From Candidatus Hadarchaeales archaeon (GTDB taxonomy: Archaea > Hadarchaeota > Hadarchaeia > Hadarchaeales > Hadarchaeaceae): a stretch of DNA of 33,669 nt. Below are positions 1 through 30,285 of the stretch, one piece after another; positions within the stretch are counted from its first letter, which is position 1, and every line of letters begins with the position of its first letter. Below the pieces are notes generated by a model. That model was not told the origin of the DNA, did no database searches, and saw only the letters and a list, made by a program, of their open reading frames with translations. A program made the position numbers and the translations under genes. Location: contig JAWCLG010000011.1 in the NCBI GenBank assembly GCA_038851075.1, positions 1 through 33,669 on the forward strand, read 5' to 3'.

Positions 1-5
1 ACCAG

Positions 6-3000
6 GTGACCCTGCTCAACGCACTGAAGTCTCCATTCTACACCAGCAGCTGGGTGCAGGGTGAGAATTTCAAGTATCCTGGAGAGCTTGTCGACGAGGA
101 GTACTACTGGAGGGTGAAAGCGAAGGACGACGCGGGAAACGTTGGAGAAGACTGCGGGGACACGTGGTTCAGGGTGGACACCAAGCCACCGGTTGCTCCT
201 TCCCTCAGCTGGCCAACCTACGGCGAAAACGTGAACGACAGCACGCCTAACCTCAGGTGGACGTACGATTACGCGGGGGGCGAGGTCGGAGGCGGAAACG
301 AGAAGTCGAAGCCCGCCTCATACAGAGTCTGGATCGCACACGATGTCGACTTCACAGAACTAGTTTTGGACTCGGGTTGGATGGCAGATCCAAACCTCGA
401 GGACGTGAATGAGAACTGGGAGGTGCCCGTTGAGAACCTCCTCCCGGACAACGTCAACCACTACTACTGGAAGGTGGGAATCAAGGACGCGGCCGGAAAC
501 GTCGGGGAGAACTCCGAGGTGTGGATATTCTGGATCGATACAGTCAAACCGCCTAAGCCGGATCCCGTCTCTCCGGAAAACAACTGGTGGGTGTCATCGA
601 CCGAGAACCTCCAGTGGACATCTGTTGAGGACAACTCGAAACCCGTCGTTTACAGGGTATGGGTCGCTCGCGATGAGGAGTTCACGATGGTGGACAGGGA
701 CTCCGGATGGAGAACCGAGAACTGGTGGAAGATCTCCCCGCCGCTTGTGGACAACTGGTACTGGTGGAGAGTGCAGGCAATGGATAACGCTGGAAACCTG
801 AGCGAAAATGCAGACGCCAGAAGATTCCTGGTGGACACGCAGGCTCCCGGAAAGACCCAGCTTCTGGCACCAGTTGAGGGGGAGAACATGAAGGACAACA
901 AACCAACCCTGCGCTGGGTGGACAACATAGAGGACCCAGCCCAGCCGGTGCTCTACTACGTGTGGGTGGCGAAAGATCAGGGGTTCACGCAGATTTACTG
1001 GGAAACAGGGGCATGGATCGAGGAGAACGAAGTGGAGGTTGGAACAGAACTTCCCGACAACGTCTACTACTGGAAGGTCGGGATAATGGACAACCTCGGA
1101 AACATCGGTGAGAACTCCGACTATTCCTGGTTCAGAATCGACGTGACCAAGCCGCCAAAGCCAGACCTGTACAGGCCTGCGAATAACACTTCAACCGAAA
1201 ATCTATCAGTTGAGCTGGAGTGGTCTCATCTCACAGACGAATCGGGCATAACTTATCATCTCCAAGTTGGAGCCGGATCAAACTTCGAAATGCTGGTGGA
1301 TAACGACAAGCTGAAGGAGAACATTTACCAGTTCACGGCCCCGCGGACAGGACTGTATGTCTGGAGGGTCTGCGCATACGACAACGCGGGGAACATCGGA
1401 GAATGGTCGGACAACTACGTGTTCACAGTTGGCATGTGGCATCTTGCAGAGAACTGGAGCGGGACGATGGGGGTGCTGGTTTCATGGCTGCAGGCGGAGG
1501 GATGGTCCGGGGATGTGAACGCGCCCGTGGGATGGGTGAGCACGGATACATGGGCGGGATCAGTTGTAGTGCCTGTTTCATGGTTCACAGCCGAATTCTG
1601 GAGCGGAGCGATGGGGGCACCGGTTGCTTGGAGCGAGACGGAGTCCTGGAATGGATCAGTTAACGCTCCCGTCAGCTGGCTGAATGTTGAGTCCTGGAAT
1701 GGATCAGTTAACGCTCCCGTTTCATGGCTGCAGGCCGAGGTATGGTCCGGTGCTTTGAACGCGCCTGTTGGGTGGATGAACGCCGAAACCTGGTCCGGGA
1801 GCTTGGGAACGTTCACCCCGGGCTGGTGCCTCGTGCAGAGCTGGTCAGGGGCCGTTCTAGTTCCGGTTGCTTGGGTGCAGACGATGACATGGAGCGGGAC
1901 GGTGAGTGCTCCGTCCCAATGGTCAGTTGCCGAGTCATGGAACGGGTACGTCGGAGTGGTAGTTTCATGGAACGTCGGAGAAACTTGGGCAGGCGCGATA
2001 GGGGCTCCGGTGGCTTGGGTGAACACGGAAACTTGGGCCGGAAAGGTATACGCGCCCGGTCCCGCACCAACCCTGATTTACCCGTCCAACAACTCAGCCG
2101 TACACGATAACGCCCCAACGTTCACATGGGACAACACTTGGGTCGCGGACAACTGGGAGATATGGGTCGACAATGACAGCAACTTCGACACTCCGGTATT
2201 CGTGGAGAACACGGTCAATAACTTCTTCAACTCGCCCCAGCTTGGAGATGAGAACTATTACTGGCGCGTGCGTGGCTGGCTCGGTCCGTCCGCATCTCCC
2301 TTCACAACGTATTCCGTGCTCATAGACACAGTCAGGCCGACCGTGCCGTTGAAGTCTGACATAGCAGAGGACACAGGAAAATCTGACTCTGACATGATAA
2401 CCAATGACGACAACATAAAGTTCATGTGGGGCGCCTCCTCTGATAGTTCAAACTCACCAACCGGAGAAAAGGCAGGAATCAGATGGTACGAGATAATTGT
2501 TGACGATGATTTGTTGCCTCCGTACGAAATTGCAGAAAATGTGGCGGGGCAGGAGATTTACATAGAGGTTCCGGAGGGCACGTGGAAGTGGATAGTCAGG
2601 GCCTGGGACTGGGCCGGCAACGTGAGCGAAAACGAGGCTCCATGGACGCTGATCGTCGACTTCACGCCTCCCGCTCCTCCCTCACTAATAACGCCGGCCA
2701 ACAACTCCGCAACGAAACAGACATCGGCCCTCCTGTTCCAGTGGGAGAACATGGCGAACTCCGACAACATCTGGAAGTACTGGGTTCAGATAGACAACGA
2801 CCAGAGCTTTCCTGGGAACCATCCGAACAAAACGAATACATATCCCACCGTCAACTACATCACAAAGTACTTCATCTATGACCCCAAGGATGAGAACTAC
2901 TGCTGGCGCGTGAAGGCTTACGACATCGCCGGAAACGAAGGCGACTGGTCTCAGGTTTGGTGTGTGATGATAGACACCAGAGCACCGATGTCTCCTGGAA

Positions 3001-4620
3001 AGTATCAACCTGTGGACAATGAAAACATAACATCATCAACCGTCCTATTCGTCTGGGGCGAGACTAATGACCAGTCTTACTCTCCAACTGGTGAGGTGGC
3101 GGGAATCGAGACCTATGAGATATGGATAGATGAAGATCTGAACTTTGGCTCGCCATATCTCGTCGAGAACTTCTCCCCGACTGGAACGGGATCCGTGGAG
3201 TTCGAAATTTCCCTGCCGGACAACGTATACTACTGGCGCGTCAGAGCCTGGGACAGGGCGGGCAACCCCGGAGGCTTCGAAACCGCGTGGAAGTTCACAG
3301 TGGACAACACGCCACCTTCCGCACCGGATCTGGTTTCGCCAGATAACCTGACCATGATGAACGACAACAGACCCACATTCACCTGGACAGAGGTATATGA
3401 TGTGACCGGAGTGACATACGAGATATGGATCGATAACGTTCCGACCTTTGACGATAACCCGTTCGTGGACAACACGGAAAACACGTTCTATGCTCTTAGC
3501 CTCGAGAACGCGCTCACGGACGAGAACTACTACTGGAAGGTCAGGGCGTGGGATGGAAAGAACTGGAGCGAGATCAGAAAGCCCGGACCGTTTTCTGGAA
3601 TAAATTCCCTGCTGCTGGACACGAGAGGACCGCCGGCTCCGAGTTCCTCTCCTGTGGTACAGATAGAGGGCAAGTGGTATGCCGGAGACGGGCTTATAAC
3701 CGGAGACAACCAGCCGTCCGTCCACTGGAACATGGTCACAGACCTCTCGTACTCTCCGACAGGAGAGGTCTCAGGGGTGAGGTATTACGAGCTGGAGATA
3801 GATAACGACAACGGCTTCACGTCGGTCGAATATCGTTGCTTCACATCCGACAACGTCTTCAACTACCTGGACGATAACTACCCGGTCGGAGCCGGGTTCC
3901 CGGATGAAAACTACTCCTTCAGGATCAGGGTCTGGGACTGGGCAGGGAACCACGGGGACTGGAGCCCCATCTGGAGTTTCATAGTTGACACGACACCTCC
4001 CACGGTTCCTGAACTCAAGGCACCGGATAACAATGCCGCGGAAAACGTGGGCATGGCATCCCTTGAATGGTACGATTCCTATGACGCAACGGGCGTGGAC
4101 CACTATTACATAGAGGTGGATGATGATCCTAGCTTCCTGACGCCGCTCGATCCCGGGTTCTTCTCTGATGATCCCACGAACCTAAAGACCACAGCAGTGG
4201 TGGTGACATTTCCTGAGGATGGCAGATACTACTGGCACGTTAAAGCGATCGACAAAGCTGGGAAGGAGAGTGCCTGGTCAGAAACCTGGGAGGTTGTGAT
4301 TGACTGTGTGAAGCCGCCGGTACCCGATCCTCTCACGCCGGTGGACAACTATCTCACTTCGGATAATACTCCGACTTTCCACTGGACCAGCGTTGAGGAC
4401 AACACAGAGACAACTCCACATGTGAGCGGTGTGGAAAACTACGTCCTTCAGATAGATGACAGCCCGGCGTTCACCTCTCCTGCCAGCTTCGTCACGCAGG
4501 AGAATATGCTCACCATCCCGGCCGACAATTCCCTCGCGGTCGGCGCATGGTACTGGAGGGTGTGCGCTGTCGACAGGGCCGGGAACCAGGGCGACTGGTC
4601 GGAGAACTTCAGGATAAACA
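6..4620 (+). repeat. About 13 FN3/Ig-like protein modules (~100 aa) in the giant protein, interrupted by the Trp-repeat block
   Basis: Recurring YYWRV.A.D.AGN....W.F.VDT.PP..P.L..P signature; counted by eye as 5 copies before 1437 and 8 after 2063. Confidence 0.85.
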
Positions 4621-7600
4621 TCACGGATTTGGTCCTGACTCTCGCGCTATCTGACAACATCGTCAACCCAGGGGAGAACTTCGCGATCTCCGGAAGGGCG
4701 AGCTGGCAACCCGAGAACCTGCCCGTTGACAACAGACCGGTGTATGTGTACGTTGATGACAATCTCATCGATACGTTGTACACCGACAACTACGGATGCT
4801 ACTCCACCTCTTACCTGACGAACGCCCTCGGTACGCATCAGGTCAAGGTGGCGATAACTGACAACCACGGAGTATATGAGGAAAACGTGGTGACCTTCAG
4901 CGTCGAGACGCTCACTGTGACAATAATGCTGGACGATTACGTGGCCAACCCCGGAGAGAGCATCGCGATATCCGGCCAGGTCCTTCGCTGGCTGGACTGG
5001 GAAAATGCTGTTCCAGAGAACAGGAGCGCGACTGACATTGTGATATACGTTGATGAGAACTATCAGACCACGCTTCACCCTGATGAAAATGGAAACTACA
5101 GCGGAGAGATCACGGCTCCTGAAAACCTGGGAGCGCACACAGTGTATGTGGACATCGAGAATCCGGACGGCATCACGGGAGATAACCAGACCAACTTCCA
5201 GGTCAAAACCGTGCACCTCACGTTCTCATTCGAACGCAGCATGGCCAACCCTGCCGAGAGGCTGAGGTACTCAGGTGTGGCTACCCTACTGCCGGACGGG
5301 ACCAAGGTGAGCGGCAAGACGGTCGAGGTCTGGCTGGGGGACACCCTCAAGAGCACCGCCCAGACCAACCCAGACGGGAGCTACTCGGGCGAGGTCATAG
5401 TACCCGAGGAACTCGACACGTACCAGTACACGGCAAAACTCTGGGCAGACGACTGGATAAAGGGAGAGAACACCGCGCTGGTCACCGTGAAGAGAATAGA
5501 TCTAGTAGCGTTTTACGATGACAACACGGTGAACCCCGGGGAGCCGAACCAGATTTACGGAACCGCTTTCCTCCTGCCAGACAACGAGCCGGTGGTAGGA
5601 CAGCAGCTCACGTTCACGCTTGAGGATGATCAGGGCAGGATCGTTGGAGGGGCAACGGGATACACCGGCCCGACCGGAGCGTACGCCATCAGCTTCACCA
5701 CGCCCAACGTCTATGGAGTCTACAGAGGAATGGTCAGCATCACCTATCAGGTGTTTTCGGCGGTTACGGTGAGGTATCTCTACGTGAAGGCGGGCGTTAT
5801 CCCGCTGTACTTCGACGACAACGTTGTGAACCTGACGCAGGACTTCTGGATTTCCGGAACAGCCAGAGTGCTGCCAGACAACGCTCCGGTCGCAAACGCA
5901 GAGGTGAAGATATACAGGGACGGAATACTGTACGACAACACGGTCACGAACGAAAACGGACAGTACTCGTATAAGTACACCGAGGACTCGATCACTCCCG
6001 AAAAACGCACAATAAAGGTAGTTGCGGTAAGCCCGGAGGGAATAGTGTGCGAAAACACGCAGTACTTCGAAAAGCGCGTCCTTCAGTACGAGCAGCTCGT
6101 GTCATACGACTCCCACGATCAGTTCGACAGCGTGCTGAATCCGGGAGAGAACTTCTACCCGAGCGTCCTGATCGAAGAGAATAACGGGACACAGGCTTTC
6201 AAAGTTCAGAAATCTCTGGACACCGACCTGTTGAGGGCCAAGGTCGGAGCAAACGTCTACGTGATGTCGCACATAAGGGAAGGTCGCTGGAAGGTGCCCA
6301 GCCTCCAAACCGCACCGAGCTCTCCCGGACAGTACTATATCATGATCGACGTCATGGGTTCCAGCGAGAACGGGATAACCACGCCCGCTTACGGCCTGCA
6401 GATGTTCTACTATGTCAAGACTCTCTCACTGGAGCTGCGCGCCACCGACTACACGGTGAACCCAGGCCAGCAGAATGTGGTTGCATACGGCACGGTCAGG
6501 CTTGTTCCGGATGGGACTCCGGTCGCTGGAGAAAACGTGGCGATATCGTTTGCCGGTGAAAACTATCTGTTAACCACGGCCGATAACGGATACTACTCAT
6601 GCGTTCTGAACATCCCAATGACCTCCAGAGTTGAGAACCTGAGGGCGAGCATAGTGGACTCCAGAGGGCTTGAGATGGAGAACACGGTGACGATAACGGT
6701 AGGGTCAATAGATATATCGTTAATCCCGGAGACTGAGATAGCAGGAGAGGGGCAGCCGTTCAGAATGTATGGAACTGCGTTGCGCAGGCCAGAAAATACT
6801 CCTGTTCAAAACACTGAGGTGAAGTTCTACATTGACAACTCATACATCAAGAGCGTGTATACCGGCACAAATGGTGCGTATGAAATCATACACACCTTCA
6901 CGACGCGCGGAATATACGAGATCAGAGTGGAGATTGTCGACGCTGATGGTATAGTCGGGGAGAACTACAGGAGTGTAATCGCTGGCAGGCCGCTGCGCAT
7001 CTGGGACAACGTTGGCATAAAGGACGTTTCTGGCACGCCTATACAGGCTACGATGAAGTTCTACGAGCAGGGCACCTCGAATGTCGCTTTTCAGATCACC
7101 ACATCCTCGGACGGTACCTATGACGTCTGGGGATTCGCAGGATACTTCGATCTGGAGATAAGCTTCCCAAGCCAGGCCGTGACCCTGAAATATGAGAACT
7201 TAAACCTTGACGGGTTCAGCGCCTGGGATGAGATAAGCAGATTCATAGAGGCCGACACACCGCCTTCGGCGTATGTTTCAGTTCCGGGAACCAGGGGCAC
7301 TCTCAGGGGAATCGCGATCCGTCCACATCAGGTGTTCACAGAGAACTACAGCAGGCTGGTCGTCACATTCACGTACAGCAGCTACATCCAGCAGGTGGGA
7401 GACATATGGTTCCTAAGAGTGTACAGGACCAAGGGATACCAGCTTGAGAACCGTATGGTGGAGGGAGGCTGGAAGGAACTGGGAGGGACTCTGGATGTTG
7501 CCAACTACAAGATCACCGCGATAGACAACGAGGACCCGCCCGCGGTGGCGTACGTCGTGGCGGAGTACGACCCGCTCTCCGCGGTTCTCCTCACTTTTGA

Positions 7601-10600: not shown

Positions 10601-10625
10601 GTCCAACGGTAAAGGCAGAAGGTAG
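6..10625 (+). CDS. Giant cell-surface protein (5' truncated): FN3/Ig-like repeats, Trp repeats, Ig-like repeats, coiled coil, CARDB-like domains, single TM helix, C-terminal HerA/FtsK/VirB4-like (DUF87-type) ATPase
   Basis: The frame is open from the window edge and begins mid-repeat with no signal peptide, so the true start is upstream. TM helix FFGISIPWLIISAVAIVAAGIAG (~8990-9060) is followed by basic YYQKRKAARRR. Walker A GATGGGKT 9240-9263, VIVFDP, Walker B LLIFDEVH 9624-9647 and REFRKWGIGVMLVSQ are the characteristic HerA/FtsK-superfamily motifs. Lys/Glu-rich tail. Confidence 0.9.
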   Translation: MTLLNALKSPFYTSSWVQGENFKYPGELVDEEYYWRVKAKDDAGNVGEDCGDTWFRVDTKPPVAPSLSWPTYGENVNDSTPNLRWTYDYAGGEVGGGNEKSKPASYRVWIAHDVDFTELVLDSGWMADPNLEDVNENWEVPVENLLPDNVNHYYWKVGIKDAAGNVGENSEVWIFWIDTVKPPKPDPVSPENNWWVSSTENLQWTSVEDNSKPVVYRVWVARDEEFTMVDRDSGWRTENWWKISPPLVDNWYWWRVQAMDNAGNLSENADARRFLVDTQAPGKTQLLAPVEGENMKDNKPTLRWVDNIEDPAQPVLYYVWVAKDQGFTQIYWETGAWIEENEVEVGTELPDNVYYWKVGIMDNLGNIGENSDYSWFRIDVTKPPKPDLYRPANNTSTENLSVELEWSHLTDESGITYHLQVGAGSNFEMLVDNDKLKENIYQFTAPRTGLYVWRVCAYDNAGNIGEWSDNYVFTVGMWHLAENWSGTMGVLVSWLQAEGWSGDVNAPVGWVSTDTWAGSVVVPVSWFTAEFWSGAMGAPVAWSETESWNGSVNAPVSWLNVESWNGSVNAPVSWLQAEVWSGALNAPVGWMNAETWSGSLGTFTPGWCLVQSWSGAVLVPVAWVQTMTWSGTVSAPSQWSVAESWNGYVGVVVSWNVGETWAGAIGAPVAWVNTETWAGKVYAPGPAPTLIYPSNNSAVHDNAPTFTWDNTWVADNWEIWVDNDSNFDTPVFVENTVNNFFNSPQLGDENYYWRVRGWLGPSASPFTTYSVLIDTVRPTVPLKSDIAEDTGKSDSDMITNDDNIKFMWGASSDSSNSPTGEKAGIRWYEIIVDDDLLPPYEIAENVAGQEIYIEVPEGTWKWIVRAWDWAGNVSENEAPWTLIVDFTPPAPPSLITPANNSATKQTSALLFQWENMANSDNIWKYWVQIDNDQSFPGNHPNKTNTYPTVNYITKYFIYDPKDENYCWRVKAYDIAGNEGDWSQVWCVMIDTRAPMSPGKYQPVDNENITSSTVLFVWGETNDQSYSPTGEVAGIETYEIWIDEDLNFGSPYLVENFSPTGTGSVEFEISLPDNVYYWRVRAWDRAGNPGGFETAWKFTVDNTPPSAPDLVSPDNLTMMNDNRPTFTWTEVYDVTGVTYEIWIDNVPTFDDNPFVDNTENTFYALSLENALTDENYYWKVRAWDGKNWSEIRKPGPFSGINSLLLDTRGPPAPSSSPVVQIEGKWYAGDGLITGDNQPSVHWNMVTDLSYSPTGEVSGVRYYELEIDNDNGFTSVEYRCFTSDNVFNYLDDNYPVGAGFPDENYSFRIRVWDWAGNHGDWSPIWSFIVDTTPPTVPELKAPDNNAAENVGMASLEWYDSYDATGVDHYYIEVDDDPSFLTPLDPGFFSDDPTNLKTTAVVVTFPEDGRYYWHVKAIDKAGKESAWSETWEVVIDCVKPPVPDPLTPVDNYLTSDNTPTFHWTSVEDNTETTPHVSGVENYVLQIDDSPAFTSPASFVTQENMLTIPADNSLAVGAWYWRVCAVDRAGNQGDWSENFRINITDLVLTLALSDNIVNPGENFAISGRASWQPENLPVDNRPVYVYVDDNLIDTLYTDNYGCYSTSYLTNALGTHQVKVAITDNHGVYEENVVTFSVETLTVTIMLDDYVANPGESIAISGQVLRWLDWENAVPENRSATDIVIYVDENYQTTLHPDENGNYSGEITAPENLGAHTVYVDIENPDGITGDNQTNFQVKTVHLTFSFERSMANPAERLRYSGVATLLPDGTKVSGKTVEVWLGDTLKSTAQTNPDGSYSGEVIVPEELDTYQYTAKLWADDWIKGENTALVTVKRIDLVAFYDDNTVNPGEPNQIYGTAFLLPDNEPVVGQQLTFTLEDDQGRIVGGATGYTGPTGAYAISFTTPNVYGVYRGMVSITYQVFSAVTVRYLYVKAGVIPLYFDDNVVNLTQDFWISGTARVLPDNAPVANAEVKIYRDGILYDNTVTNENGQYSYKYTEDSITPEKRTIKVVAVSPEGIVCENTQYFEKRVLQYEQLVSYDSHDQFDSVLNPGENFYPSVLIEENNGTQAFKVQKSLDTDLLRAKVGANVYVMSHIREGRWKVPSLQTAPSSPGQYYIMIDVMGSSENGITTPAYGLQMFYYVKTLSLELRATDYTVNPGQQNVVAYGTVRLVPDGTPVAGENVAISFAGENYLLTTADNGYYSCVLNIPMTSRVENLRASIVDSRGLEMENTVTITVGSIDISLIPETEIAGEGQPFRMYGTALRRPENTPVQNTEVKFYIDNSYIKSVYTGTNGAYEIIHTFTTRGIYEIRVEIVDADGIVGENYRSVIAGRPLRIWDNVGIKDVSGTPIQATMKFYEQGTSNVAFQITTSSDGTYDVWGFAGYFDLEISFPSQAVTLKYENLNLDGFSAWDEISRFIEADTPPSAYVSVPGTRGTLRGIAIRPHQVFTENYSRLVVTFTYSSYIQQVGDIWFLRVYRTKGYQLENRMVEGGWKELGGTLDVANYKITAIDNEDPPAVAYVVAEYDPLSAVLLTFENAVSTIQETAGLLGEMSQSLMDNALLLASVVDNLKQTVGNLATQENIAALADIQGQIANILDNVSGILNQIVNLENSSLGLTENLWSAFIQLSQLLENASRSSQVDEIREQLSQAFAVLQGLAPRESLSIDPSIAWLEIYQGETTEFFVRITNTSTSDLSVHPEKGVRNWPESLELDRSIRMSFDPSVLSLKSAETRTLTVTVVAGTNVPAGVYSGEVLIKGTGVEKALPVAMRVRPWARGLFDLSVTSLVRTSYPGGKVPVEVQLKNMGIQAADAEVTVTLESVSGARLATVMGETVKVDVSETKVQTYEIEVPVDIEEGQYVIKAVAVYHWNGDNVTISGVDTVEIEKFIKVTLRTLAREVEPGGKIPFEAEFRNTGSEWTEVNVKLQLLTPAGEPCWSESVRISLEPNSVERRTYEADVPSDTAGGTFVLTASGEYVWLEKAISITEAEAEVQVKSPPFTFFGISIPWLIISAVAIVAAGIAGRFGYRYYQKRKAARRRFEARLFTAELPKPGPDAIKIGKLAEAPGDAHLDINDLRMHVMTAGATGGGKTISSMVIAEEALLKGRNVIVFDPTAQWTGFLKKCTSEKMLSYYKNFGMKDSDARGFPGVVKLVTNPRQKLDMKELLGEEARGKITVFVIERLKPGDMDVFVTNVIQSIFESQPMEYPGLKTLLIFDEVHRLLPRFGGTGAGVIQLERAVREFRKWGIGVMLVSQVMGDFEEEIRSNIRTQVQFWTREKEELDRISRTYGEEHMRSVSKAPVGFGMLVNPDYNRGRPYYINFRPILHEVQRLDPKQLDRYYAADERIENIKYKLKKLEEKGVDVFDLRIELGLAMRKLEEASFDMVDAYLESLEPRVESVCAQHKMAGLKREIELRSEKEIKETQMAALRERERRLGAVARRPPEIVEAYKELLARATPVATGETGKPLKEEEVVHPMAEKGPPKSEEEIEKQMEEIEKPKEAAEKKVVEEKEEQVKKAKEEKKPAAKAKAKNGAAKKSNGKGRR
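1437..2063 (+). repeat. 13 tandem 16-aa Trp-rich repeats (consensus WxxxExWSGxVxAPVx; 48-nt period)
   Basis: Units such as WLQAEGWSGDVNAPVG, WSETESWNGSVNAPVS and WLNVESWNGSVNAPVS (one unit has 17 aa). Exact 32-nt direct repeat GAGTCCTGGAATGGATCAGTTAACGCTCCCGT at 1641-1672 and 1689-1720. Confidence 0.95.
4621..6985 (+). repeat. About 8 second-class Ig-like modules (macroglobulin/carboxypeptidase-regulatory-like) in the giant protein
   Basis: Repeated D..VNPGE...I.G....LPD..PV and T..NG.YS motifs, e.g. LSDNIVNPGENFAISG, LDDYVANPGESIAISG, YDDNTVNPGEPNQIYG, ATDYTVNPGQQNVVAYG. Confidence 0.75.
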
Positions 10626-10651
10626 AATGATGCGTTTGTGTCATTGGCGGC

Positions 10652-10665
10652 CAACCCTTATAATA
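10652..10665 (+). promoter_or_regulatory. Putative BRE/TATA promoter for the 10695 gene
   Basis: CAACCCTTATAATA ending ~30 nt before ATG 10695. Confidence 0.55.
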
Positions 10666-10694
10666 AAATGCGCCCACTTTTAACGTGTGGTTGA

Positions 10695-11486
10695 ATGAGG
10701 GCGGCGGTTAAAGTGCTGGCGATATCTGCGGTGGCCGCACTGGTCTTCACCGGGGTCTATCTATCGCTTAAGGTGACTTTTGAGCTGGCAGGGTTGGATT
10801 TCGTGGCAGATGGCGACTGTTTTATCCGGGTCAGTTACCACACGAACCGCCCCGCGGTTGCTAGGCTTTTGTCATATGATAACAGGGTGCTGGAGGAGGT
10901 GGAGCTGCCTTCTGGATCAGACCATGCCGAAATTAAAATAACAGAGAACCGCAGCAATCCCAAAGAGCCGGTTTTTCTGATAATAGAACAGGGTGGCAGA
11001 GTTATCTGGACCGGTGGTTTCTCGATGCCGGTTGTCCAGCTAAAGCTCATTGGCATAGTGGAGTGGGGCTGGGATCCTGATGCCGGCCTGAGCACCATCA
11101 AGTGCTTGGCTGTCCAGATAAGCAACGGAGGAGGGCTACCAGCGCATGTGTACAGGATAAGCGGTCTGCTGGACGGAAGACTCGTTGGAGGGACTTCAAC
11201 CGAGTGGGAGCCTGCTGGAGAGGGAATTGTGGACAGATGGATAATGCCTGGTGCCGAGGACAATCTGACCGTGGAGTGGAGTGGACCGTCGCTTTCACCA
11301 GGATACCACGGATTCAAGCTCGTCGCCGAGGACATTGACGGTGAAGAAGTCGCAGGTATGGTGTTCCCAGCCTTCGTCAACGTTCCAAGCGAGTACATTC
11401 ACGGCGGGAGGATGGTCGATGAGTGGAGCGGGGAAGTCGGGGCACCGGCTGGATGGTACAGATCGGAGAACTGGAGATTGAGGTAA
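10695..11486 (+). CDS. Membrane-anchored or exported beta-rich protein with a C-terminal Trp-repeat motif
   Basis: N-terminal hydrophobic segment VLAISAVAALVFTGVYLSL; beta-strand-rich body; ends GRMVDEWSGEVGAPAG-WYRSENW, in register with the 16-aa repeat of the giant protein. Confidence 0.8.
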   Translation: MRAAVKVLAISAVAALVFTGVYLSLKVTFELAGLDFVADGDCFIRVSYHTNRPAVARLLSYDNRVLEEVELPSGSDHAEIKITENRSNPKEPVFLIIEQGGRVIWTGGFSMPVVQLKLIGIVEWGWDPDAGLSTIKCLAVQISNGGGLPAHVYRISGLLDGRLVGGTSTEWEPAGEGIVDRWIMPGAEDNLTVEWSGPSLSPGYHGFKLVAEDIDGEEVAGMVFPAFVNVPSEYIHGGRMVDEWSGEVGAPAGWYRSENWRLR

Positions 11487-11511
11487 AGATACTTCAGTTG
11501 ACTAGATACCC

Positions 11512-11540
11512 ACCAATCCGTGGATTTTTCCACGTTTGGT
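11512..11540. terminator. Possible hairpin between convergent genes
   Basis: ACCAA-TC-CGTGGA-TTTT-TCCACG-T-TTGGT inverted repeat in the 69-nt gap between stop codons. Confidence 0.3.
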
Positions 11541-11555
11541 AAGCAGCCCGCGTTT

Positions 11556-12365
11556 CTACCGGGTCCTGCCAATGTGCTTCAGAATCTCTCCAGCCAGATT
11601 TACAAATCCTCTGGATGCCCTGCACCTGGGTCTGTGCTTCACGACAGGTATTCCTGCCGCGGTGGCCTCCTGCACCAGCCTGCTTTCGGGAATCTGGGCG
11701 ACCACCGGCCACCCTAATGATTTTTTCACCTCCGTGATGGACAGCTCAAACGGGTATCCTGCCACCCTGTTTACGACCACGCCGAATATCGGAATTTTGT
11801 ACTTCTCTGCCGCCCGGAATGTCTTGAGAGTGCTGGCTATCGTGGGAACATATGGATTTGTTACTATTATCATCTCGTCGCAGGCTTTCAGCGCCACGAC
11901 CACTTCCTTGCCTATGCCCGGAGCGGTGTCTATCAGGATGAGCTTGAACATGCGCTTGAGGGGTTCTATCAGCTCCCCGAGGTCAGAAACGTATATCTCA
12001 TCCTCGAACGCTATTGATCCGAACACCGCCTTTACGCCCTGGCTTTCAGTTATGGCGTCCTGAATCGGAAGTCCCCTGGAGACCACATCGTGCACGGTTA
12101 TCTCGGGGGTGAGCTCTCCGAAGTGGAGACAGAGGTTTGGGGCGCCGAAGTTGGCGTCCAGCAGCAGCACCCTGTCCTCACCCCACATGTTCGCGAGCGC
12201 AATGCCGGTGTTTACCACTGTGGTGGTTTTTCCTACGCCCCCCTTGCAGGAAAAAACGCCTATGACTCTTGCCTCGCGCTTTTCTATGAATGGGGAATCC
12301 ATCTTCCTGCCGTCCAGCAGGACTTTCAGTTTTCTCGTCGCGCGCGGTTTTTTCAACAGCGACAT
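11556..12365 (-). CDS. minD: MinD/ParA-family ATPase
   Basis: Deviant Walker A KGGVGKTT, LLLDAN..APNL, ILIDTAPG, GVVVNRV, IPES..VQEA...GIPVV; basic ~30-aa N-terminal extension. Confidence 0.85.
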   Translation of the reverse strand: MSLLKKPRATRKLKVLLDGRKMDSPFIEKREARVIGVFSCKGGVGKTTTVVNTGIALANMWGEDRVLLLDANFGAPNLCLHFGELTPEITVHDVVSRGLPIQDAITESQGVKAVFGSIAFEDEIYVSDLGELIEPLKRMFKLILIDTAPGIGKEVVVALKACDEMIIVTNPYVPTIASTLKTFRAAEKYKIPIFGVVVNRVAGYPFELSITEVKKSLGWPVVAQIPESRLVQEATAAGIPVVKHRPRCRASRGFVNLAGEILKHIGRTR

Positions 12366-12393
12366 TATTTCAGTGAAAATTTTGTCTTTCTTC

Positions 12394-12405
12394 TATAAAA
12401 TTAAT
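12394..12405 (-). promoter_or_regulatory. Putative TATA box for the MinD-like gene (leaderless)
   Basis: Minus strand ATTAATTTTATA ending 28 nt upstream of ATG 12365. Confidence 0.5.
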
Positions 12406-12425
12406 TTGGTAGCAGCGCTGGTCTA

Positions 12426-13331
12426 TCAGACGAGGGCGTCGAGCAGCTTTGATATCCCGGTCTCGACCACCTTGATCTCCCTCTCGATCCTGTCTAGTCT
12501 CCTCTGATTTTTCTCATCGTTTTCCTTAAGGGTCTCCACCATCTCCTTTAGCTTTGCGAACTCCACCGGGTCAAGCTCGGACTTCACTTTGGCGGCCAGC
12601 TGGGTGGAGACGAACTTTTCAAAATCAGCTTTGGGCAAGGCCTGCTTAACAGCAGTGTCCACCTGGCTGAGGGTCTTCGACATGTTTTTCACGCTCTCCT
12701 CCACGACTCCGAGCCTCACCAGCATGTCTGTAACCTCCTTCAGCCTTCTCTGAAACTCCATAAAGGCGCTCATCACCTTGTCAGACATCAGCTCGACTTC
12801 ATCCCTGAGTTTCTGTATCCGCATTATGTTTCTCCTAGCATCGTCCGCCATACCCACGACCGTTTCGAACCCCTTGAACTTGGCCATGGTCTCCCTGTAA
12901 CCGCCAATCTCCTTTCTCAGTTCCTTTATCTCCTCGCTCACTAGGGAGAACTTCGTCTTCAGACCCTCTATGTCGTTATCCCTCTTCATTATCATTGACC
13001 TGAACTCCTCGGGCTTTATGCCCTCGAGAGCACCCAAGGCTCTCTCAGCCTTGGCCTTGGCATCAGCGCTGTCCTTTGCCTGGCTGAGGATCATGGACCT
13101 CAGCTCACCGACCTTCTCGTTGAGCATGGATATTCTCGTGTCGGTCGGTTCCCTGAGTGCCATGAGACCCATCACGCTGGCCTCCAGCTGATCCATTTTG
13201 ACCTTTAGTGCCTTGTCAATCTTAGATTCCAATGCAGGCTCGGGCGCGGGAGATTCCTCAGGTTTTTTCTGTTCTTCGGGCTTTTCTGAGGATGCCTCCT
13301 TCTTTTTACCGCGTTTTTTCAGCATCTTCAT
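12426..13331 (-). CDS. Cytoplasmic coiled-coil protein of unknown function
   Basis: 301 aa, heptad-patterned and rich in E/K/L/M/R, no TM segment, charged disordered N-terminus; GGTGA lies just upstream of the ATG AAG ATG start region. Confidence 0.8.
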   Translation of the reverse strand: MKMLKKRGKKKEASSEKPEEQKKPEESPAPEPALESKIDKALKVKMDQLEASVMGLMALREPTDTRISMLNEKVGELRSMILSQAKDSADAKAKAERALGALEGIKPEEFRSMIMKRDNDIEGLKTKFSLVSEEIKELRKEIGGYRETMAKFKGFETVVGMADDARRNIMRIQKLRDEVELMSDKVMSAFMEFQRRLKEVTDMLVRLGVVEESVKNMSKTLSQVDTAVKQALPKADFEKFVSTQLAAKVKSELDPVEFAKLKEMVETLKENDEKNQRRLDRIEREIKVVETGISKLLDALV

Positions 13332-13445
13332 TCACCATAATCTATGGGCACTGGCATTTTATCTTTACCGCTGGTTGGCAAATCTCTCGGGCTTGGTTAT
13401 CCTCCAGCGGAGGGGCTTAATACCACAGAAACAGGATTTGAATTG

Positions 13446-13931
13446 ATGGAGCGAAACGAAATAGCGATAGTTCTGCTCCTAGCCATGCTGGCCTGCGCGT
13501 GGGCTGTCTGGCTATGGGGCGGTTCGTTTGGCGCCGGCACCTCAAATGATAATCTGGAAGGCCTGTTGGACAGAACATCCCTTTTCAGGGGTTATCGGGC
13601 ATATATGGATAACTCGCTGGGCCTCTGTTTCACCACAGGGTCGAGCATGGAGCCGGCCCTCAGGACCGGAGATACGGCTATATGGGTCAAAGTTCCATTT
13701 GAAAATCTTCAAGTTGGAGATGTCATCGTTTACTCACATACCGTCACAGTAGGAGAGAACAGGGGTCAGATCTTCATAGTCGTTCACAGGATCATTAACA
13801 CAGTGGAGGACGGAGTTTTCACGAAGGGAGACAATCTCTCCAGCCCTGATGCTTACAAAGTGAGACCGGGAGATTTTATAGGTCTTGTTAGGGGCGTCCT
13901 GTTCACATCCTCCGGATCGTGGGAGAGGTGA
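13446..13931 (+). CDS. S26 signal peptidase I, ER/archaeal (Sec11/SipW) type, predicted active
   Basis: N-terminal TM; box B TGSSMEPALRTGD (Ser nucleophile), VGDVIVY, IVVHRII (His base), TKGDN...PD. Start moved from 13344 to ATG 13446, with TTAATA ~24 nt upstream. Confidence 0.85.
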   Translation: MERNEIAIVLLLAMLACAWAVWLWGGSFGAGTSNDNLEGLLDRTSLFRGYRAYMDNSLGLCFTTGSSMEPALRTGDTAIWVKVPFENLQVGDVIVYSHTVTVGENRGQIFIVVHRIINTVEDGVFTKGDNLSSPDAYKVRPGDFIGLVRGVLFTSSGSWER

Positions 13932-13935
13932 GAGC

Positions 13936-14370
13936 ATGAGGAGAGCAACTGTTAAAAAGATTGAGAGCGGGATTGTCCTAGTTTTACTTTTCGCAACGAC
14001 TTTCAGCTGGATATTTGCTGTTTCGAGGCTGTTTTCCGAGCAGAAGCTGAATGACGTGTCGGAATATTTTGACAACTTCAGGGTTCTGCTCAGTGATGAG
14101 ATCAATATAACATCCGCTGGAAACTGGGACATGGGGCAGACCATCAGGGAGGGCGATATGGTCATGTGGGTACGGCCTGATCAGGGAAAGGTTGGAACCG
14201 GTGACCTGGTGCTGTGCAGGGATGAAGATAATTCAGTTATCGCACGCAGGGTAATTTCAACCGATAACGGATGCTTTCAAGTCAGGGGAGACTCGCTGGG
14301 AAGTGAGACTTATTCAGTTTCTTTTACAGACATCGTCGGACAGATTATCGGAGTGATTTACGAGAGGTGA
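13936..14370 (+). CDS. S26 signal-peptidase-like paralogue lacking catalytic residues
   Basis: Co-linear with the upstream peptidase (TIREGDMVMW, TGDLVL, RRVI, VRGDS, DIVGQIIGV) but SSMEP is WDMGQ and VHRI is ARRV; GAGGTGA RBS overlaps the upstream stop. Confidence 0.75.
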   Translation: MRRATVKKIESGIVLVLLFATTFSWIFAVSRLFSEQKLNDVSEYFDNFRVLLSDEINITSAGNWDMGQTIREGDMVMWVRPDQGKVGTGDLVLCRDEDNSVIARRVISTDNGCFQVRGDSLGSETYSVSFTDIVGQIIGVIYER

Positions 14371-14374
14371 GGTT

Positions 14375-15040
14375 ATGTCAGCTCCCGCTGAGGAAGTAAA
14401 GATTGGTAAAAAGGACCTGATTAAACTTTTCGTGAAGAAGCGTTGGAAGCACCTGATCCTCGCTGGTGCGTGTATCGCGGTCCTGTCCTTCGTGTTCTGG
14501 CTTGTATTCAAGCCGCCTGAGCCACAGCCAGCCTGGGTGTCAGGGCCGATTTTCAACCAGCCGGGAGAAAACGGCCTTCTCGCCGCGGTTGGTGAGAACA
14601 CCGGGATCGAGAATATATACCTCGCGGCATGGGGAAAATATGGGCCCGCGTACAATCCGAGGGAAGACCTAGCCGCACAGGCAGGTGCGGTTGACGGGGT
14701 GATAAGCTCCAGCGGGCAGTGCGTGCAGATATGGGCGAACAGGCGGTTCGACATAGTCATTGCGGTCAGGGCGAAGACTCCGGAAATAGCCTACGTGGCG
14801 AGGGAAAACATGTGGGTGACGCTTGCCGCGACGGTAAACGGGTTCACCATAGGTCCCGAAAATTCAACCGACCGTAAGGAATACGTGTTCGAGCAGTCGG
14901 GTTACGGGACTACCGAGGGATACATGCGCGTGAACGTTGTGTGGGACAACGACGGGAACGGTTACGAGCTCATGCCGCAGGATAACCTGAAGATAATGTT
15001 GCTGGGCTTCTACACCTGGAGATATCCTGGAAGACTTTAA
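14375..15040 (+). CDS. Exported or membrane-anchored protein, paralogue of the 15110-15922 product
   Basis: GAGGTGAGG RBS; KKRWKH followed by hydrophobic helix LILAGACIAVLSFVFWLVF; shares six ordered motifs with the convergent gene. Confidence 0.8.
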   Translation: MSAPAEEVKIGKKDLIKLFVKKRWKHLILAGACIAVLSFVFWLVFKPPEPQPAWVSGPIFNQPGENGLLAAVGENTGIENIYLAAWGKYGPAYNPREDLAAQAGAVDGVISSSGQCVQIWANRRFDIVIAVRAKTPEIAYVARENMWVTLAATVNGFTIGPENSTDRKEYVFEQSGYGTTEGYMRVNVVWDNDGNGYELMPQDNLKIMLLGFYTWRYPGRL

Positions 15041-15073
15041 GTTGCACCTCAGTGTACCCAGCCCCAGCTGATC

Positions 15074-15097
15074 AAATAAAAAAATAAAAAAAAGAAA
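15074..15097 (-). terminator. Oligo-T archaeal terminator for the 15110-15922 gene
   Basis: Minus strand TTTCTTTTTTTTATTTTTTTATTT starting 12 nt after the TAG. Confidence 0.7.
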
Positions 15098-15109
15098 TGC
15101 GCTGCTGGA

Positions 15110-15922
15110 CTAGCTCCAGATATACAGCGCAATTGTGTCCAAGCTAAGGGTTCCGCCGGCCGGTAGTTTGAAGCCAGCCCCTCCATTGTTGAACACGCAG
15201 TTGACCCTTGCATATCCACTAGCATACGCTCCGTTCTGTGTCCACGGCACGTTGTTGTCAAAGACGAACTCATAGCCAGTGTTCTGCGTGTTTTCAGTCC
15301 CTGAGTGTGCCCCGCTGAAGCTGAGATACCCATACATATTGTCCATGTTCACGTATGCCACGAGCTTCGCATCCTGCTTGTTTCCGGTGTAGCCTGCGTC
15401 GGCCTTAACCTTGCAAGCCATGACTATGGTGAACGGATACTCGTACGGAATCGTTGCTGTGTCAGAGTTTGCGGTTATTATAGCGTCAGAGGCTCCATCC
15501 AGCAACCAGTTGTCATTGTTTTCCCCGGATATGTGCCTGCCGAAATTGGTTGAGTTTGGTGCAAGATTGTCGCAGATGAGCACGTTCTCTATCCCACTGT
15601 TTTCAGGTACGCCTGCGGTAAAGCCAAGCAGAAACTGTCCATCGGCGGTCAGCAGCTGCCCCGAGATCAGCGAAACGGTCCCCTGTCCAGAAACCGTTGA
15701 TGGTGTGGACAGTGCCCATCCAGCTAGCCCTGCCACTATCACTATTGCAACAGCTGCGGTAACCCATTTCCACTGTGCCATTCTTTTTTCCACCTCCATT
15801 TTTTTTATTGGTGCCCTCGCCAGAGGTCCGGGCATAAAATCAAGTCTCCCCTTGCAACGCGGGCATTCCTTCGGGTGTTGCACCCTCGGGTTCCACTCAT
15901 ATCCACAGCGGGGGCACCTCAT
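15110..15922 (-). CDS. Exported protein with N-terminal C4 Zn ribbon, TM/signal helix and Gly/Asn/Ala-rich beta domain (candidate filament or surface subunit)
   Basis: CPRCGYEW.PR...PKECPRCK, then WVTAAVAIVIVAGLAGWAL; alternative start at Met48 (15781) with GGAGGTG RBS. Confidence 0.8.
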   Translation of the reverse strand: MRCPRCGYEWNPRVQHPKECPRCKGRLDFMPGPLARAPIKKMEVEKRMAQWKWVTAAVAIVIVAGLAGWALSTPSTVSGQGTVSLISGQLLTADGQFLLGFTAGVPENSGIENVLICDNLAPNSTNFGRHISGENNDNWLLDGASDAIITANSDTATIPYEYPFTIVMACKVKADAGYTGNKQDAKLVAYVNMDNMYGYLSFSGAHSGTENTQNTGYEFVFDNNVPWTQNGAYASGYARVNCVFNNGGAGFKLPAGGTLSLDTIALYIWS

Positions 15923-15946: not shown

Positions 15947-15960
15947 TTATTTAAGGGTTG
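15947..15960 (-). promoter_or_regulatory. Putative BRE/TATA promoter for the Zn-ribbon exported-protein gene (leaderless)
   Basis: Minus strand CAACCCTTAAATAA ending 24 nt before ATG 15922. Confidence 0.6.
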
Positions 15961-18219: not shown

Positions 18220-18268
18220 CATTCGGTCAGGTTAAAAGAGCATGACGCCAAGGTTAAAGCGTGAGGCT

Positions 18269-19348
18269 ATGCGAGTCACCTTAATACCCGGCGACGGTGT
18301 TGGGCCTGAGGTCATAGATGCGGCCAGGGCCTGCATAGAGGCCACCGGTGCAAAAGTGGAGTGGGATGTTGTCGAGGCGGGGGCCGGCGTTGTGGAAAAA
18401 TACGGGACTCCACTGCCGGAACATGTGCTTGAGTCCATAAGAAAAAACCGGGTCGCGCTGAAGGGCCCGATAACCACTCCGGTTGGGGAGGGATTCAGGA
18501 GCGTGAATGTTGCCATAAGAAAGGCCCTCGATCTTTACGCGTGTGTGCGCCCTTGCAGGTGGTACAGGGGCGTGAGGTCGAACTATGAGGGCGTGGATCT
18601 GATCATAGTGCGAGAAAACACCGAGGACCTTTATGCTGGCGTAGAGTTCCCAGAGGGAGAGAAGGACACAAGGGATCTCATTGAATTCGTTTCCGTGAGG
18701 GGAAGGGGTGCCGTGAGGGGAGATTCAGGGGTAAGCCTGAAGGCGATCTCCCGTTTCGGGTCTGAGAGGGTAGTGAGGTTCGCATTCAGATATGCGAGGG
18801 AGAACCGCAGGAGAAAGGTCACCGCAGTTCACAAGGCCAATATAATGAAGTTTTCCGATGGGCTATTTCTGGACGCTGCGCGCAGAGTGGCGCAGGAGTT
18901 TCCAGACATTGAGTTTGAGGACAGGATAGTGGACAACATGTGCATGCAGCTTGTACAGAAGCCCCAGCTCTACGATGTTATAGTTGCCCCAAATCTATAT
19001 GGGGATATACTGTCGGATCTCTGTGCCGGCCTTGTTGGTGGCCTAGGTGTGGCACCTGGGGCGAATATAGGTGATGAGTTCGCGGTATTTGAGCCAACGC
19101 ACGGTAGCGCACCGAAGTATGCCGGCAAGAACAAGGTCAACCCCACGGCCGCGATTCTCTCGGGTGTGATGATGCTGAGGCATATTGGCGAGGTCGAAAG
19201 AGCTGCAGCGCTGGAGATGGCGGTCGCAGCGGTGATCGCCGAGGGAAGATACGTTACGTATGACATGAAGGAAAATCCGGGAGACCCTTCGGCGGTCGGC
19301 ACGAGCGAGATGGCAAGAGCGGTGGTAAGGCATCTGGAACGTGCGTAG
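18269..19348 (+). CDS. icd: Isocitrate/isopropylmalate dehydrogenase family, most like NAD-dependent isocitrate dehydrogenase
   Basis: [80 protein letters not shown]. Confidence 0.75.
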
Positions 19349-19422
19349 AGTGCCGTTCTAGCGGTTCTCCGCGGCGCCACAAAATTTTAAGCCTGTGTGG
19401 TGGATAGGCGAACGGTAAATCA

Positions 19423-26739: not shown

Positions 26740-26778
26740 TTCAATTCTGCGCCAACGTATTTAAATGGAATTGCAGTT

Positions 26779-30277: not shown

Positions 30278-30285
30278 CTCACCAC

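Follow-up and report, generated by a model that had tools for sequence, protein, structure and literature searches.

A composite cell-surface island of two conserved gene modules in a hot-spring Hadarchaeales archaeon, a possible apparatus for cell contact

Only a handful of surface machines have been described that could explain how small-genome archaea attach to other cells and exchange material with them. As reportedly set out by Iyer et al. in 2004, HerA proteins of the FtsK-HerA superfamily work as ATPase rings, tracking along DNA or pumping it. The SPEARE proteins of Nanohaloarchaeota symbionts are said to be giant adhesin-like membrane proteins with protease and nuclease domains, without a C-terminal HerA-type ATPase, and are thought to act in host contact. 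Solenoids of the Ag43/TibA type mediate cell-cell aggregation. For surface fibers, PMC9245690 describes the tapA-sipW-tasA operon of Bacillus subtilis (anchor/minor subunit, dedicated SipW-type S26 peptidase, major subunit) and presents the loci of archaeal bundling pili (AbpA/AbpB) without a dedicated peptidase. MinD4 of Haloferax volcanii positions the archaellum and chemosensory arrays, according to 10.1101/2020.04.03.021790 and PMC11588486. Here we describe a locus of Candidatus Hadarchaeales archaeon, in a stretch of 33,669 nt (contig JAWCLG010000011.1; the window), which encodes a giant surface protein fused to a HerA-type ATPase together with seven further genes. We read this hot-spring archaeon locus, with a probability of roughly 55%, as a composite cell-surface island of two conserved modules that serves as a positioned apparatus for cell contact or adhesion.

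The window is the entire contig C11 of its source genome (G000; 1.01 Mb in 29 contigs, 88% complete), and the stretch is present in three DNA sequencing runs, all from one hot-spring study. Eight contiguous non-metabolic genes occupy positions 3-15922, as a preliminary description of this DNA had proposed. Module A consists of genes 1 and 4, and module B of genes 2, 3 and 5-8 plus the Trp-repeat part of gene 1. The features of the two modules are as follows (aa, amino acids; TM, transmembrane).

3..10625, plus strand: gene 1, at least 3540 aa, a predicted type I membrane protein with an ectodomain, one TM helix and a cytoplasmic HerA-type ATPase
3..4622, plus strand: Ig-like repeat region of gene 1 (Rha78A_N/Big_13 type), about 1540 residues, from Pfam and a motif count
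1449..2072, plus strand: Trp repeat array of gene 1, 13 tandem units of 16 aa (aa 483-690)
4623..6992, plus strand: Big_1/transthyretin-like/MG4-like beta-sandwich modules of gene 1, below Pfam cut-offs
8100..8972, plus strand: membrane-proximal NEW3/CARDB-type Ig domains of gene 1 (NPCBM_assoc, 26.9 bits against a cut-off of 24.4)
8985..9059, plus strand: single TM helix of gene 1 (aa 2995-3019)
9120..10007, plus strand: HerA/DUF87-type P-loop ATPase domain of gene 1, from Pfam, motifs and PDB relatives
10008..10622, plus strand: cytoplasmic helical tail of gene 1 with a Lys-rich end; a 'DVFDL.(I/L)EL' segment is conserved in alignments A1/A4
10695..11486, plus strand: gene 2, a 263-aa exported protein with an N-terminal TM anchor and a C-terminal Trp unit
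11556..12365, minus strand: gene 3, a MinD/ParA-type ATPase with the deviant Walker A KGGVGKT from aa 41
12426..13331, minus strand: gene 4, a 301-aa cytoplasmic coiled-coil protein with a Lys-rich N-terminus
13344..13931, plus strand: gene 5, an archaeal-type S26 signal peptidase I, likely true start ATG at 13446
13885..14370, plus strand: gene 6, an S26-like paralog without the catalytic Ser (NWDMGQ) or His (ARRV), likely start ATG at 13936
14375..15040, plus strand: gene 7, a 221-aa TM-anchored exported subunit, paralog of the gene-8 ectodomain
15110..15922, minus strand: gene 8, a 270-aa protein: N-terminal cytoplasmic Zn-ribbon (CxxC...CxxC), TM helix, extracellular beta-sandwich domain

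The ATPase domain of gene 1 passes the Pfam cut-offs for HerA_C (31.9 bits; cut-off 22) and DUF87 (30.1 bits; 23.2), and its relatives by sequence in the PDB are HerA proteins only (E 1e-11 to 3e-7). Its Walker A (GATGGGKT; nt 9240-9263, aa 3080-3087) and Walker B (LLIFDEVHRL; nt 9624-9653, aa 3208-3217) lie within the segment 9130-10030 where the preliminary description had placed an ATPase, and the catalytic motifs are invariant in an alignment of 14 sequences (A1). Because the window is the whole contig, the 5′ end of gene 1 is cut; a piece on another contig of the same genome (C22:8466-11810) is likely the missing N-terminus, to judge from its N-terminal similarity to a protein of a related genome, G025. 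In complete relatives the open frame spans 7944 aa (G025) or 7554 aa (G034), and the G025 giant starts with a signal-peptide-like (Sec-type) stretch. The ectodomain as recovered is dominated by Ig-like repeats (Pfam Ig_Rha78A_N, 77.2 bits; Big_13, 72.3 bits), with ten strict matches to a 'YYWRV..D.AGN' module, followed by beta-sandwich modules whose scores are all under cut-off (Big_1, 31.5 bits; TTR-52, 24.0; MG4, 21.3); PF10633, the NEW3/CARDB type found next to the membrane, is common among the relatives listed and recurs in those from DPANN.

Gene 4 accompanies the ATPase giant closely. The comparison set comprised 41 related Hadarchaeales genomes, kin and incomplete metagenome-assembled genomes (MAGs) that break at repeats, so that counts among them are descriptive and carry no tests; 11 of the 41 give strong ATPase matches (E<=1.7e-98), and exactly these 11 also have gene 4. 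In seven of nine loci fetched from relatives, gene 4 immediately follows the ATPase gene and is read in the same direction, while in a same-genus locus the two adjoin with gene 4 inverted, as in the window. G000 itself holds a second pair on contig C25, with an ATPase part 48.7% identical over 651 aa and a gene-4 homolog starting 4 nt after it. All matches of gene 4 to Pfam and NCBIfam fall below cut-offs, and a PDB profile search returned generic or designed coiled coils only (best E 1.4e-5). A hidden Markov model (HMM) of the gene-4 family, for which 41 of the 42 sequences came from DPANN and one from Hadarchaeota, matched only gene 4 and the C25 copy among all open reading frames (ORFs) of G000 (E 3e-49 and 3e-62); the relation is therefore one of specific homology rather than generic coiled-coil similarity. 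A word-indexed search put the family at 89 members, named 'hypothetical' or given generic automatic labels, whose named taxa are, with few exceptions, those of the ATPase. Co-folding of the cytoplasmic part of gene 1 (A4, 461 aa) with gene 4 (A3) scored 0.00, which is evidence neither way.

This pairing extends well beyond Hadarchaeales. At E<=1e-30, 341 ATPase clusters (50% identity) were found among 1.84 billion representatives, the domain being 40-55% identical across phyla with invariant Walker A and B, and ectodomains vary strongly among relatives while the ATPase is conserved. The domain sits near the C-terminus in most of the 150 ATPase proteins listed (429-6253 aa, many of them fragments), and 131 relatives of 1947-6195 aa, named only 'DUF87', 'HerA-like' or 'hypothetical', come from Hadarchaeales and Aenigmat-, Woese-, Pace-, Nano-, Micr- and Nanohaloarchaeota. 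A survey of species genomes gave 599 candidate stretches, 506 of which encode an ATPase relative. For neighborhood counts 80 loci were retained, with record titles that name Hadarchaeota and Woese-, Pace-, Aenigmat- and Nanoarchaeota. Complete ATPase proteins in the 80 loci are bimodal, with a short form of 706-864 aa and a long form of at least 1131 aa. The gene-4 HMM matched no more than 3 kb downstream, on the same strand, of 28 of the 33 long-form genes (at least 1000 aa), compared with 3/26 short-form genes and 2/5 cut by a locus edge. Short and long forms are sometimes in tandem (L068, L074, L079 and L081, among DPANN loci L034-L109). A Lys-rich protein of about 200 aa lies directly downstream in 55/80 loci (DPANN), and no counterpart of it was found in G000; a secreted protein of about 300 aa is present in 32/80. 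One locus titled Candidatus Hadarchaeales archaeon (L030) has the same gene order as the window and an ATPase domain 94% identical. Eight loci with DPANN-type gene order (L045, L049, L053, L062, L083, L086, L087 and L097) are titled 'uncultured Methanosarcinales archaeon', labels that may be binning or naming artefacts.

Module B has a different core, a cassette of two S26-type proteins and exported subunits. Gene 5 passes the S26 model TIGR02228 (56.9 bits; cut-off 51.85), also gives a weak SipW match (NF046067, 26.6 bits), and retains the Ser of GSSMEP, the His of VHRI and a KGDN box, and on these intact boxes it is predicted to be an active S26 signal peptidase. Two further S26 genes of the usual type are found elsewhere in G000, so the housekeeping role does not have to fall to gene 5. 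The preliminary description had both S26 genes as dedicated peptidases; gene 6, paralogous to it as proposed (blastp E 2e-4; phmmer 1e-5 to 1e-7), has no NCBIfam match, scores 16.2 bits against 23.3 for Pfam S24 and, lacking both Ser and His, appears to be a catalytically dead pseudo-peptidase. The Ser is lost in all seven rows of the S26b alignment (gene 6 and six homologs), which argues that the pseudo-peptidase is a conserved feature and not a decayed gene.

Genes 7 and 8 encode the paralogous exported proteins predicted earlier for the reading frames at 14375 and 15110 (blastp E 4e-12 to 6e-12), with invariant GIEN, F and AY positions in their alignment (A2). An AlphaFold2 (AF2) model of gene 8 from a 16-row alignment (predicted local distance difference test, pLDDT, 67.4; predicted template modeling score, pTM, 0.60) has a TM helix and an Ig-like beta-sandwich. 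Foldseek returned nothing at E<=0.001 for this model, the best match being a streptococcal pilin (E 0.012, TM score 0.22), and VIA returned PitB (Z 5.7; root-mean-square deviation, rmsd, 3.7 Å over 105 aligned residues), Spy0128 (Z 5.3) and many Ig-like domains; as modeled, the likeness is one of common arrangement and no family tie. PDB profile searches with genes 7/8 matched Zn-ribbons only (E>=0.095), and an Atlas feature search gave scores of at most 0.79, in which viral jelly-roll families are leads only. The family numbers 24 members in 5.8 billion proteins (word-indexed search), unnamed or labelled Hadarchaeales, and no Pfam domain was found in any of them.

The module B cassette is Hadarchaeales-specific. 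Gene 8 (E<=1e-10) is present in 24/41 genomes, 14 of them without module A. Among 12 loci fetched with 1.5-kb flanks, four, from several genera, have the colinear order gene8 - S26a - gene7 - S26b, and shorter versions occur elsewhere. A related genome without module A, G023, has two versions: gene8 - S26a - gene2-like - S26b - gene7 and gene8 - S26a - gene2-like - S26b. Gene 2, for which no Pfam family was found at E<=1, carries a single Trp unit near its C-terminus (aa 242-254; nt 11418-11456), kept in the orthologue from the sister genome of the same genus and in the G023 homologs, which end in one or two units. The Trp motif is thus common to genes 1 and 2 (13 units versus one), as first noted, but gene 2 groups with the peptidase cassette and not, as its earlier description as partner of gene 1 implied, with gene 1.

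The Trp unit, with consensus W-x-x-[IV]-E-[ST]-W-[ST]-G-x-V-x-A-P-x-x, has two Trp per 16 aa. No Pfam family was found for the array at E<=1, nor was it detected at the DNA level by Tandem Repeats Finder. The AF2 model (6-row alignment; pLDDT 72.0, pTM 0.63) has one long strand per unit; Foldseek gave no match at E<=0.001. VIA placed it near Ag43 (Z 15.5, rmsd 4.0 Å, 223 aligned), TibA (15.2) and a Ca-dependent antifreeze solenoid (15.0), values that are inflated for repeat folds, for which a Z near 13 can reflect common arrangement alone. The modeled array likely belongs to the beta-solenoid class, with nothing implied beyond class.

Trp repeats occur in 24/41 genomes, in ORFs of up to 5638 aa, and ATPase giants hold them also (e.g. 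the 7944-aa ORF of G025). Three full-length giants without the ATPase are type I proteins too: near the C-terminus each has a TM helix, then a basic tail in which an 'L..LE.F...RR' motif recurs, and shorter ones have a similar basic tail at the end. The tails of the ATPase-less giants at L133:2-5863, L134:5443-14568 (minus strand) and L140:167-11755 have two to three 'L..LE.F...RR(K)' repeats, and this repeat is a candidate MinD-contact peptide. At L128/L136 (G008:C1, ~571-574 kb), masked bases (X) split a Trp-repeat gene into ORFs of 686 and 499 aa. Such proteins might instead form a structural coat, sheath- or S-layer-like, with S26 removing signal peptides, the subunits serving as anchors and MinD and the ATPase acting in insertion or turnover. 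There are several giants per genome (three in G025, of 7944, 5638 and 3170 aa in 64 kb; at least three fragments in G000), they have Sec-type N-termini and C-terminal TM anchors, and Ig-like and solenoid modules make up their ectodomains, as in many envelope proteins. An essential coat should, however, be universal in the order, whereas Trp giants are absent from 17/41 genomes and the ATPase giant from 30/41, and a variable ectodomain joined to a conserved ATPase is the pattern of contact or recognition proteins; we regard the coat as improbable.

Gene 3 is a MinD/ParA-type ATPase. It passes the Pfam models ParA (56.8 against 27.1) and CbiA (52.9 against 25.4) and is under the cut-off of the archaeal minD_arch model TIGR01969 (168 bits against 201.75). 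Relatives (E<=1e-40) are found in 30/41 genomes, including all 27 with gene 8 or the Trp repeat; in the 11 MinD-less genomes both gene 8 and the Trp repeat are missing (0/11). A tree of 19 rows, which excluded matches that were weaker or shorter, places gene 3 in a 10-row clade in which every row adjoins a Trp giant or a cassette (support 82/87). The MinDs directly after gene 4 in G013, G025 and G035 form a sub-clade (89/98) of its sister clade, and a further split (97/96) separates the two clades from the remaining MinD/ParA genes of the genome. Gene 8 and the Trp repeat are both present in 21/41 genomes, each alone in three, and neither in 14. The cassette is no more than 5 kb from a Trp-repeat ORF in 13 of the 24 gene-8 genomes, and in 11 a MinD gene intervenes or adjoins; this neighborhood is seen with and without the ATPase giant. 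For the remaining 11 gene-8 genomes, where contigs are short or carry the pieces separately, the order is unreadable.

The two modules come together more often than would be expected from their sizes. Four genomes of three families (G000, G001, G031 and G025) have them side by side or within one island: in G031 (contig C29) the cassette begins ~300 nt after gene 4, and in G025 the modules are 25 kb apart, within a 64-kb stretch (G025:C1, ~77-141 kb; L017-L019, L141) that takes up ~5% of the genome and encodes the three giants, gene 4, two MinD genes and the peptidase cassette. In the window and in the sister genome they are interleaved, the window order being A, B, B-type MinD, A, B, B, B, B, and gene 8 is found in 10 of the 11 module-A genomes.

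Several observations weigh against treating the locus as one positioned contact apparatus. Module A is in 11/41 genomes and is DPANN-wide, whereas the gene-8 cassette is in 24/41 and in Hadarchaeales only; G010 has module A only, and G002, G008, G011, G018, G024 and others have module B only. Distributions that differ in this way, with either module able to stand by itself, exclude a single obligate machine. The preliminary description had taken the eight genes for one apparatus and had proposed neighborhood conservation and phyletic concordance as a check: the ATPase giant and gene 4 do keep together, adjacent and in the same genomes, as do the S26 genes, genes 7-8, MinD and the Trp giants, but the two sets are discordant with each other and are better described as separable modules. 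Both proteins of its MinD/coiled-coil pair are confirmed by Pfam and NCBIfam comparison, but outside close kin the MinD adjoins the ATPase gene in only three of the 80 loci. Independence is overstated by the relatedness of the 41 genomes, and absences may be assembly gaps. Gene 1 is incomplete, the confidence of the models is middling (pLDDT 67 for gene 8, 72 for the Trp array), and the subunits have no significant fold or sequence tie to a known fiber subunit.

Much of the same evidence could be explained if the modules were functionally unrelated and merely co-located in a surface-gene hotspot, with A acting alone, as in DPANN, and B serving as an envelope or fiber biogenesis cassette. The discordant phyletic patterns and the occurrence of each module alone are what such a hotspot would give; in 7/11 module-A genomes the cassette lies on a different contig or no copy was seen in the vicinity, MinD is missing from 77/80 and S26 from 79/80 loci, and genes 2 and 5-8 were seen within the 80 loci in the same-genus locus only. 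Co-location by chance accounts less readily for one island in four genomes of three families, for the interleaving of A and B genes in the window, for the Trp solenoid, a marker of B neighborhoods, lying inside ATPase giants, and for the near-constant company of gene 8 in module-A genomes. We consider this explanation doubtful and retain the reading of a composite island with a role in cell contact.

If the island does act in cell contact, gene 1 would be exported by Sec, placing a variable adhesin-like ectodomain outside and joining it through one TM helix to the conserved HerA-type ATPase inside, and gene 4 would be its dedicated cytoplasmic partner. By analogy with the FtsK-HerA superfamily, the ATPase may form a ring under the membrane; given such a ring, about six giant chains would be gathered into one surface stalk, with ATP hydrolysis coupled to work at the contact point. 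A conserved motor behind a variable ectodomain fits a contact or recognition device with an ATP-driven inner end. That the ATPase pulls a polymer, most likely DNA, in or out at the contact site is plausible within this reading, though somewhat short of an even chance; that it controls, with ATP, the clustering or anchoring of the adhesin on a gene-4 scaffold is a more tentative option. With one TM helix per chain (at most ~six helices per ring) and no conserved polytopic partner found in Hadarchaeales, a DNA channel or pump becomes harder to sustain. In module B, gene 5 would mature the subunits (genes 2, 7 and 8) and gene 6 would act as a non-catalytic binder; the subunits and the Trp unit of gene 2 may dock on the Trp solenoid of the giant, and MinD may place the membrane-anchored giants through their basic cytoplasmic tails, much as MinD4 acts in Haloferax. 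The boldest version, in which the ectodomain-TM-HerA ATPase and its coiled-coil partner are the core of an undescribed pan-DPANN/Hadarchaeales 'adhesin-motor' organelle, a ring tied to six host- or neighbor-binding stalks that drives contact-dependent transfer of DNA or another polymer, seems unlikely as it stands.

The surroundings of the island bear on a further explanation, an integrated mobile element or virus whose HerA/FtsK-type ATPase is a packaging or conjugation motor. One relative (P0003) is named 'predicted phage tail protein', weak PHROG matches include a terminase family (E 3e-7), and distribution among relatives is patchy. The window, however, holds no tRNA gene and has an even G+C content (0.50-0.58); integrase, capsid and relaxase families are absent from the Pfam scans, the ATPase forms the inner end of a membrane protein and is not a free terminase, and PADLOC matches are to generic HerA only. 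The flanking genes are housekeeping genes: from 16.4 kb on the window encodes aconitase-type dehydratase subunits, two Iso_dh proteins, a flavoprotein, an M50 peptidase, thymidylate kinase and glycogen enzymes. A mobile element is very improbable on this evidence. The Iso_dh-family genes are in tandem (18242-20556), after the pair of aconitase-type large and small subunits, and the glycogen cluster (25564-31536) consists of GT4, GH57, debranching enzyme and GT4 genes.

Elsewhere in G000, the second giant-ATPase pair (C25:2-5431) and further pieces of giant genes (C22:1-5430, C22:8466-11810 and C18:10982-15532) all lie at contig ends, so the giants break the assembly. On C22 the two N-terminal fragments, both open at the 3′ end, flank a MinD-like gene, and the C18 fragment is a third giant, open at the 5′ end, with Trp repeats and without the ATPase. 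Two large surface proteins with a C-terminal TM helix and without the ATPase (C18:4071-8453, 1461 aa; C6:31763-35653, 1297 aa) have cytoplasmic coiled-coil tails near-identical to each other.

Two compositional links of the preliminary description fared differently. The [DE]N bias of the exported parts was borne out: the gene-1 ectodomain has 115 [DE]N dipeptides where 28.5 are expected, fourfold over composition, and in genes 7 and 8 they make up ~4% of dipeptides, where the figure for 647 other ORFs of the genome is 0.46%, an excess of about eightfold over genome background per dipeptide. Asp or Glu precedes 115 of the 208 Asn of the ectodomain (3-8984), and the bias recurs in genes 5-8. As a mark of N-glycosylation it was rejected, an N-x-S/T sequon being present at only 14 of the 115 sites. 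The shared promoter 9-mer, CAACCCTTA, does have two copies upstream of genes 2 and 8:

10652..10660, plus strand: 9-mer CAACCCTTA 35 nt before gene 2, beside a TATA-like box
15952..15960, minus strand: 9-mer CAACCCTTA 30 nt before gene 8, beside a TATA-like box; the sister genome has it in the same position

It occurs exactly twice in the window (expected 0.20), and two or more copies were seen in 3/100 shuffles. This is marginally above chance, and the gene-2 copy is not kept in the sister genome, so that the 9-mer was set aside as a regulatory link.

The ATPase family is large (341 clusters, 506 loci) and combines a conserved motor, a variable exterior and a fixed partner with uninformative names. 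The kit specific to Hadarchaeales hints at a way in which giants anchored in the membrane might be matured and placed. Its conserved pseudo-signal-peptidase and 16-residue Trp solenoid repeat have no family model in the libraries searched. The cytoplasmic ATPase, gene 4, the active and dead S26 peptidases and the Trp solenoid are concrete targets for expression, and the locus supplies a marker for finding contact sites by cryo-electron tomography. Were the adhesin-motor organelle real, its occurrence alongside this subunit/peptidase/MinD kit in ~1-Mb Hadarchaeales genomes would imply that these archaea, hitherto read as free-living, depend on cell-to-cell contact as well.

Beyond generic P-loop, MinD/ParA and S26 models, no function-bearing family model for either module was found in Pfam, NCBIfam, PADLOC or PHROGs, and no literature on the ectodomain-TM-DUF87/HerA architecture was found in a search with subscription journals and supplements outside its scope. 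A defence-system reading was dropped, PADLOC giving generic HerA/mad8 matches only. In line with the preliminary description, no Pfam or NCBIfam model of an archaellum, type IV pilus or Ced gene set was matched above its cut-off. For module B, the logic of the tapA-sipW-tasA operon, as presented in PMC9245690, is matched by the gene8 - S26a - gene7 order, kept in relatives, but that operon lacks the extra Ser-less peptidase paralog of the cassette and the Zn-ribbon on its anchor subunit. Peptidase_M73/TasA (PF12389) had no match at E<=1 in G000, with a positive control in B. subtilis, and is absent from the 16 members of A2; genes 7 and 8 were accordingly rejected as TasA subunits, on sequence grounds, and neither TasA nor AbpA was listed in the fold searches with the gene-8 model (pLDDT 67.4). 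Ag43 and TibA, the best structural neighbors of the Trp-array model, are 5-7% identical to it with no sequence similarity, and are autotransporter adhesins, whereas the Trp giant is an archaeal type I membrane protein. Gene 3 is, like MinD4, of MinD/ParA type, but belongs to an order-specific clade tied to giant surface proteins.

For module A, the HerA helicases (HerA-NurA, defence-linked HerA, YjgR/DUF853) share the P-loop clade, and gene 1 passes HerA_C and DUF87; it scores 17.7 bits on the HerA equivalog NF040819, against a cut-off of 970. The HAS-barrel family is not among its Pfam matches (E<=0.01), with ~60 residues from the TM helix to Walker A, and the domain is instead fused behind the TM helix to a giant ectodomain, with a coiled-coil protein as its partner; no NurA-like match was found among the eight products in Pfam and NCBIfam, the genome itself not having been searched for NurA. 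Gene 1 is also below the VirB4_plasma (17.3 against 590) and T4SS-DNA_transf (15.4 against 20.1) cut-offs, FtsK_SpoIIIE is not listed for it (E<=0.01), and it has one TM helix and no polytopic N-terminus of the FtsK/SpoIIIE kind. Unlike gene 1, the Ced, FtsK, TraB, VirB4 and VirD4 proteins are not known to carry an adhesin ectodomain of their own, and there is no pilin or relaxase at the locus. With the Ced DNA-import system of Crenarchaeota (CedA/CedB/CedD) gene 1 shares a membrane-tethered FtsK-HerA-type ATPase at the cell surface. Its best NCBIfam match is CedD, over Walker A, in one local stretch (aa 3055-3119) at 34.1 bits against a cut-off of 600; none of the seven neighboring products is polytopic by inspection, no CedA model having been run. 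The movement of DNA between touching cells by Ced is the nearest functional analogy for gene 1.

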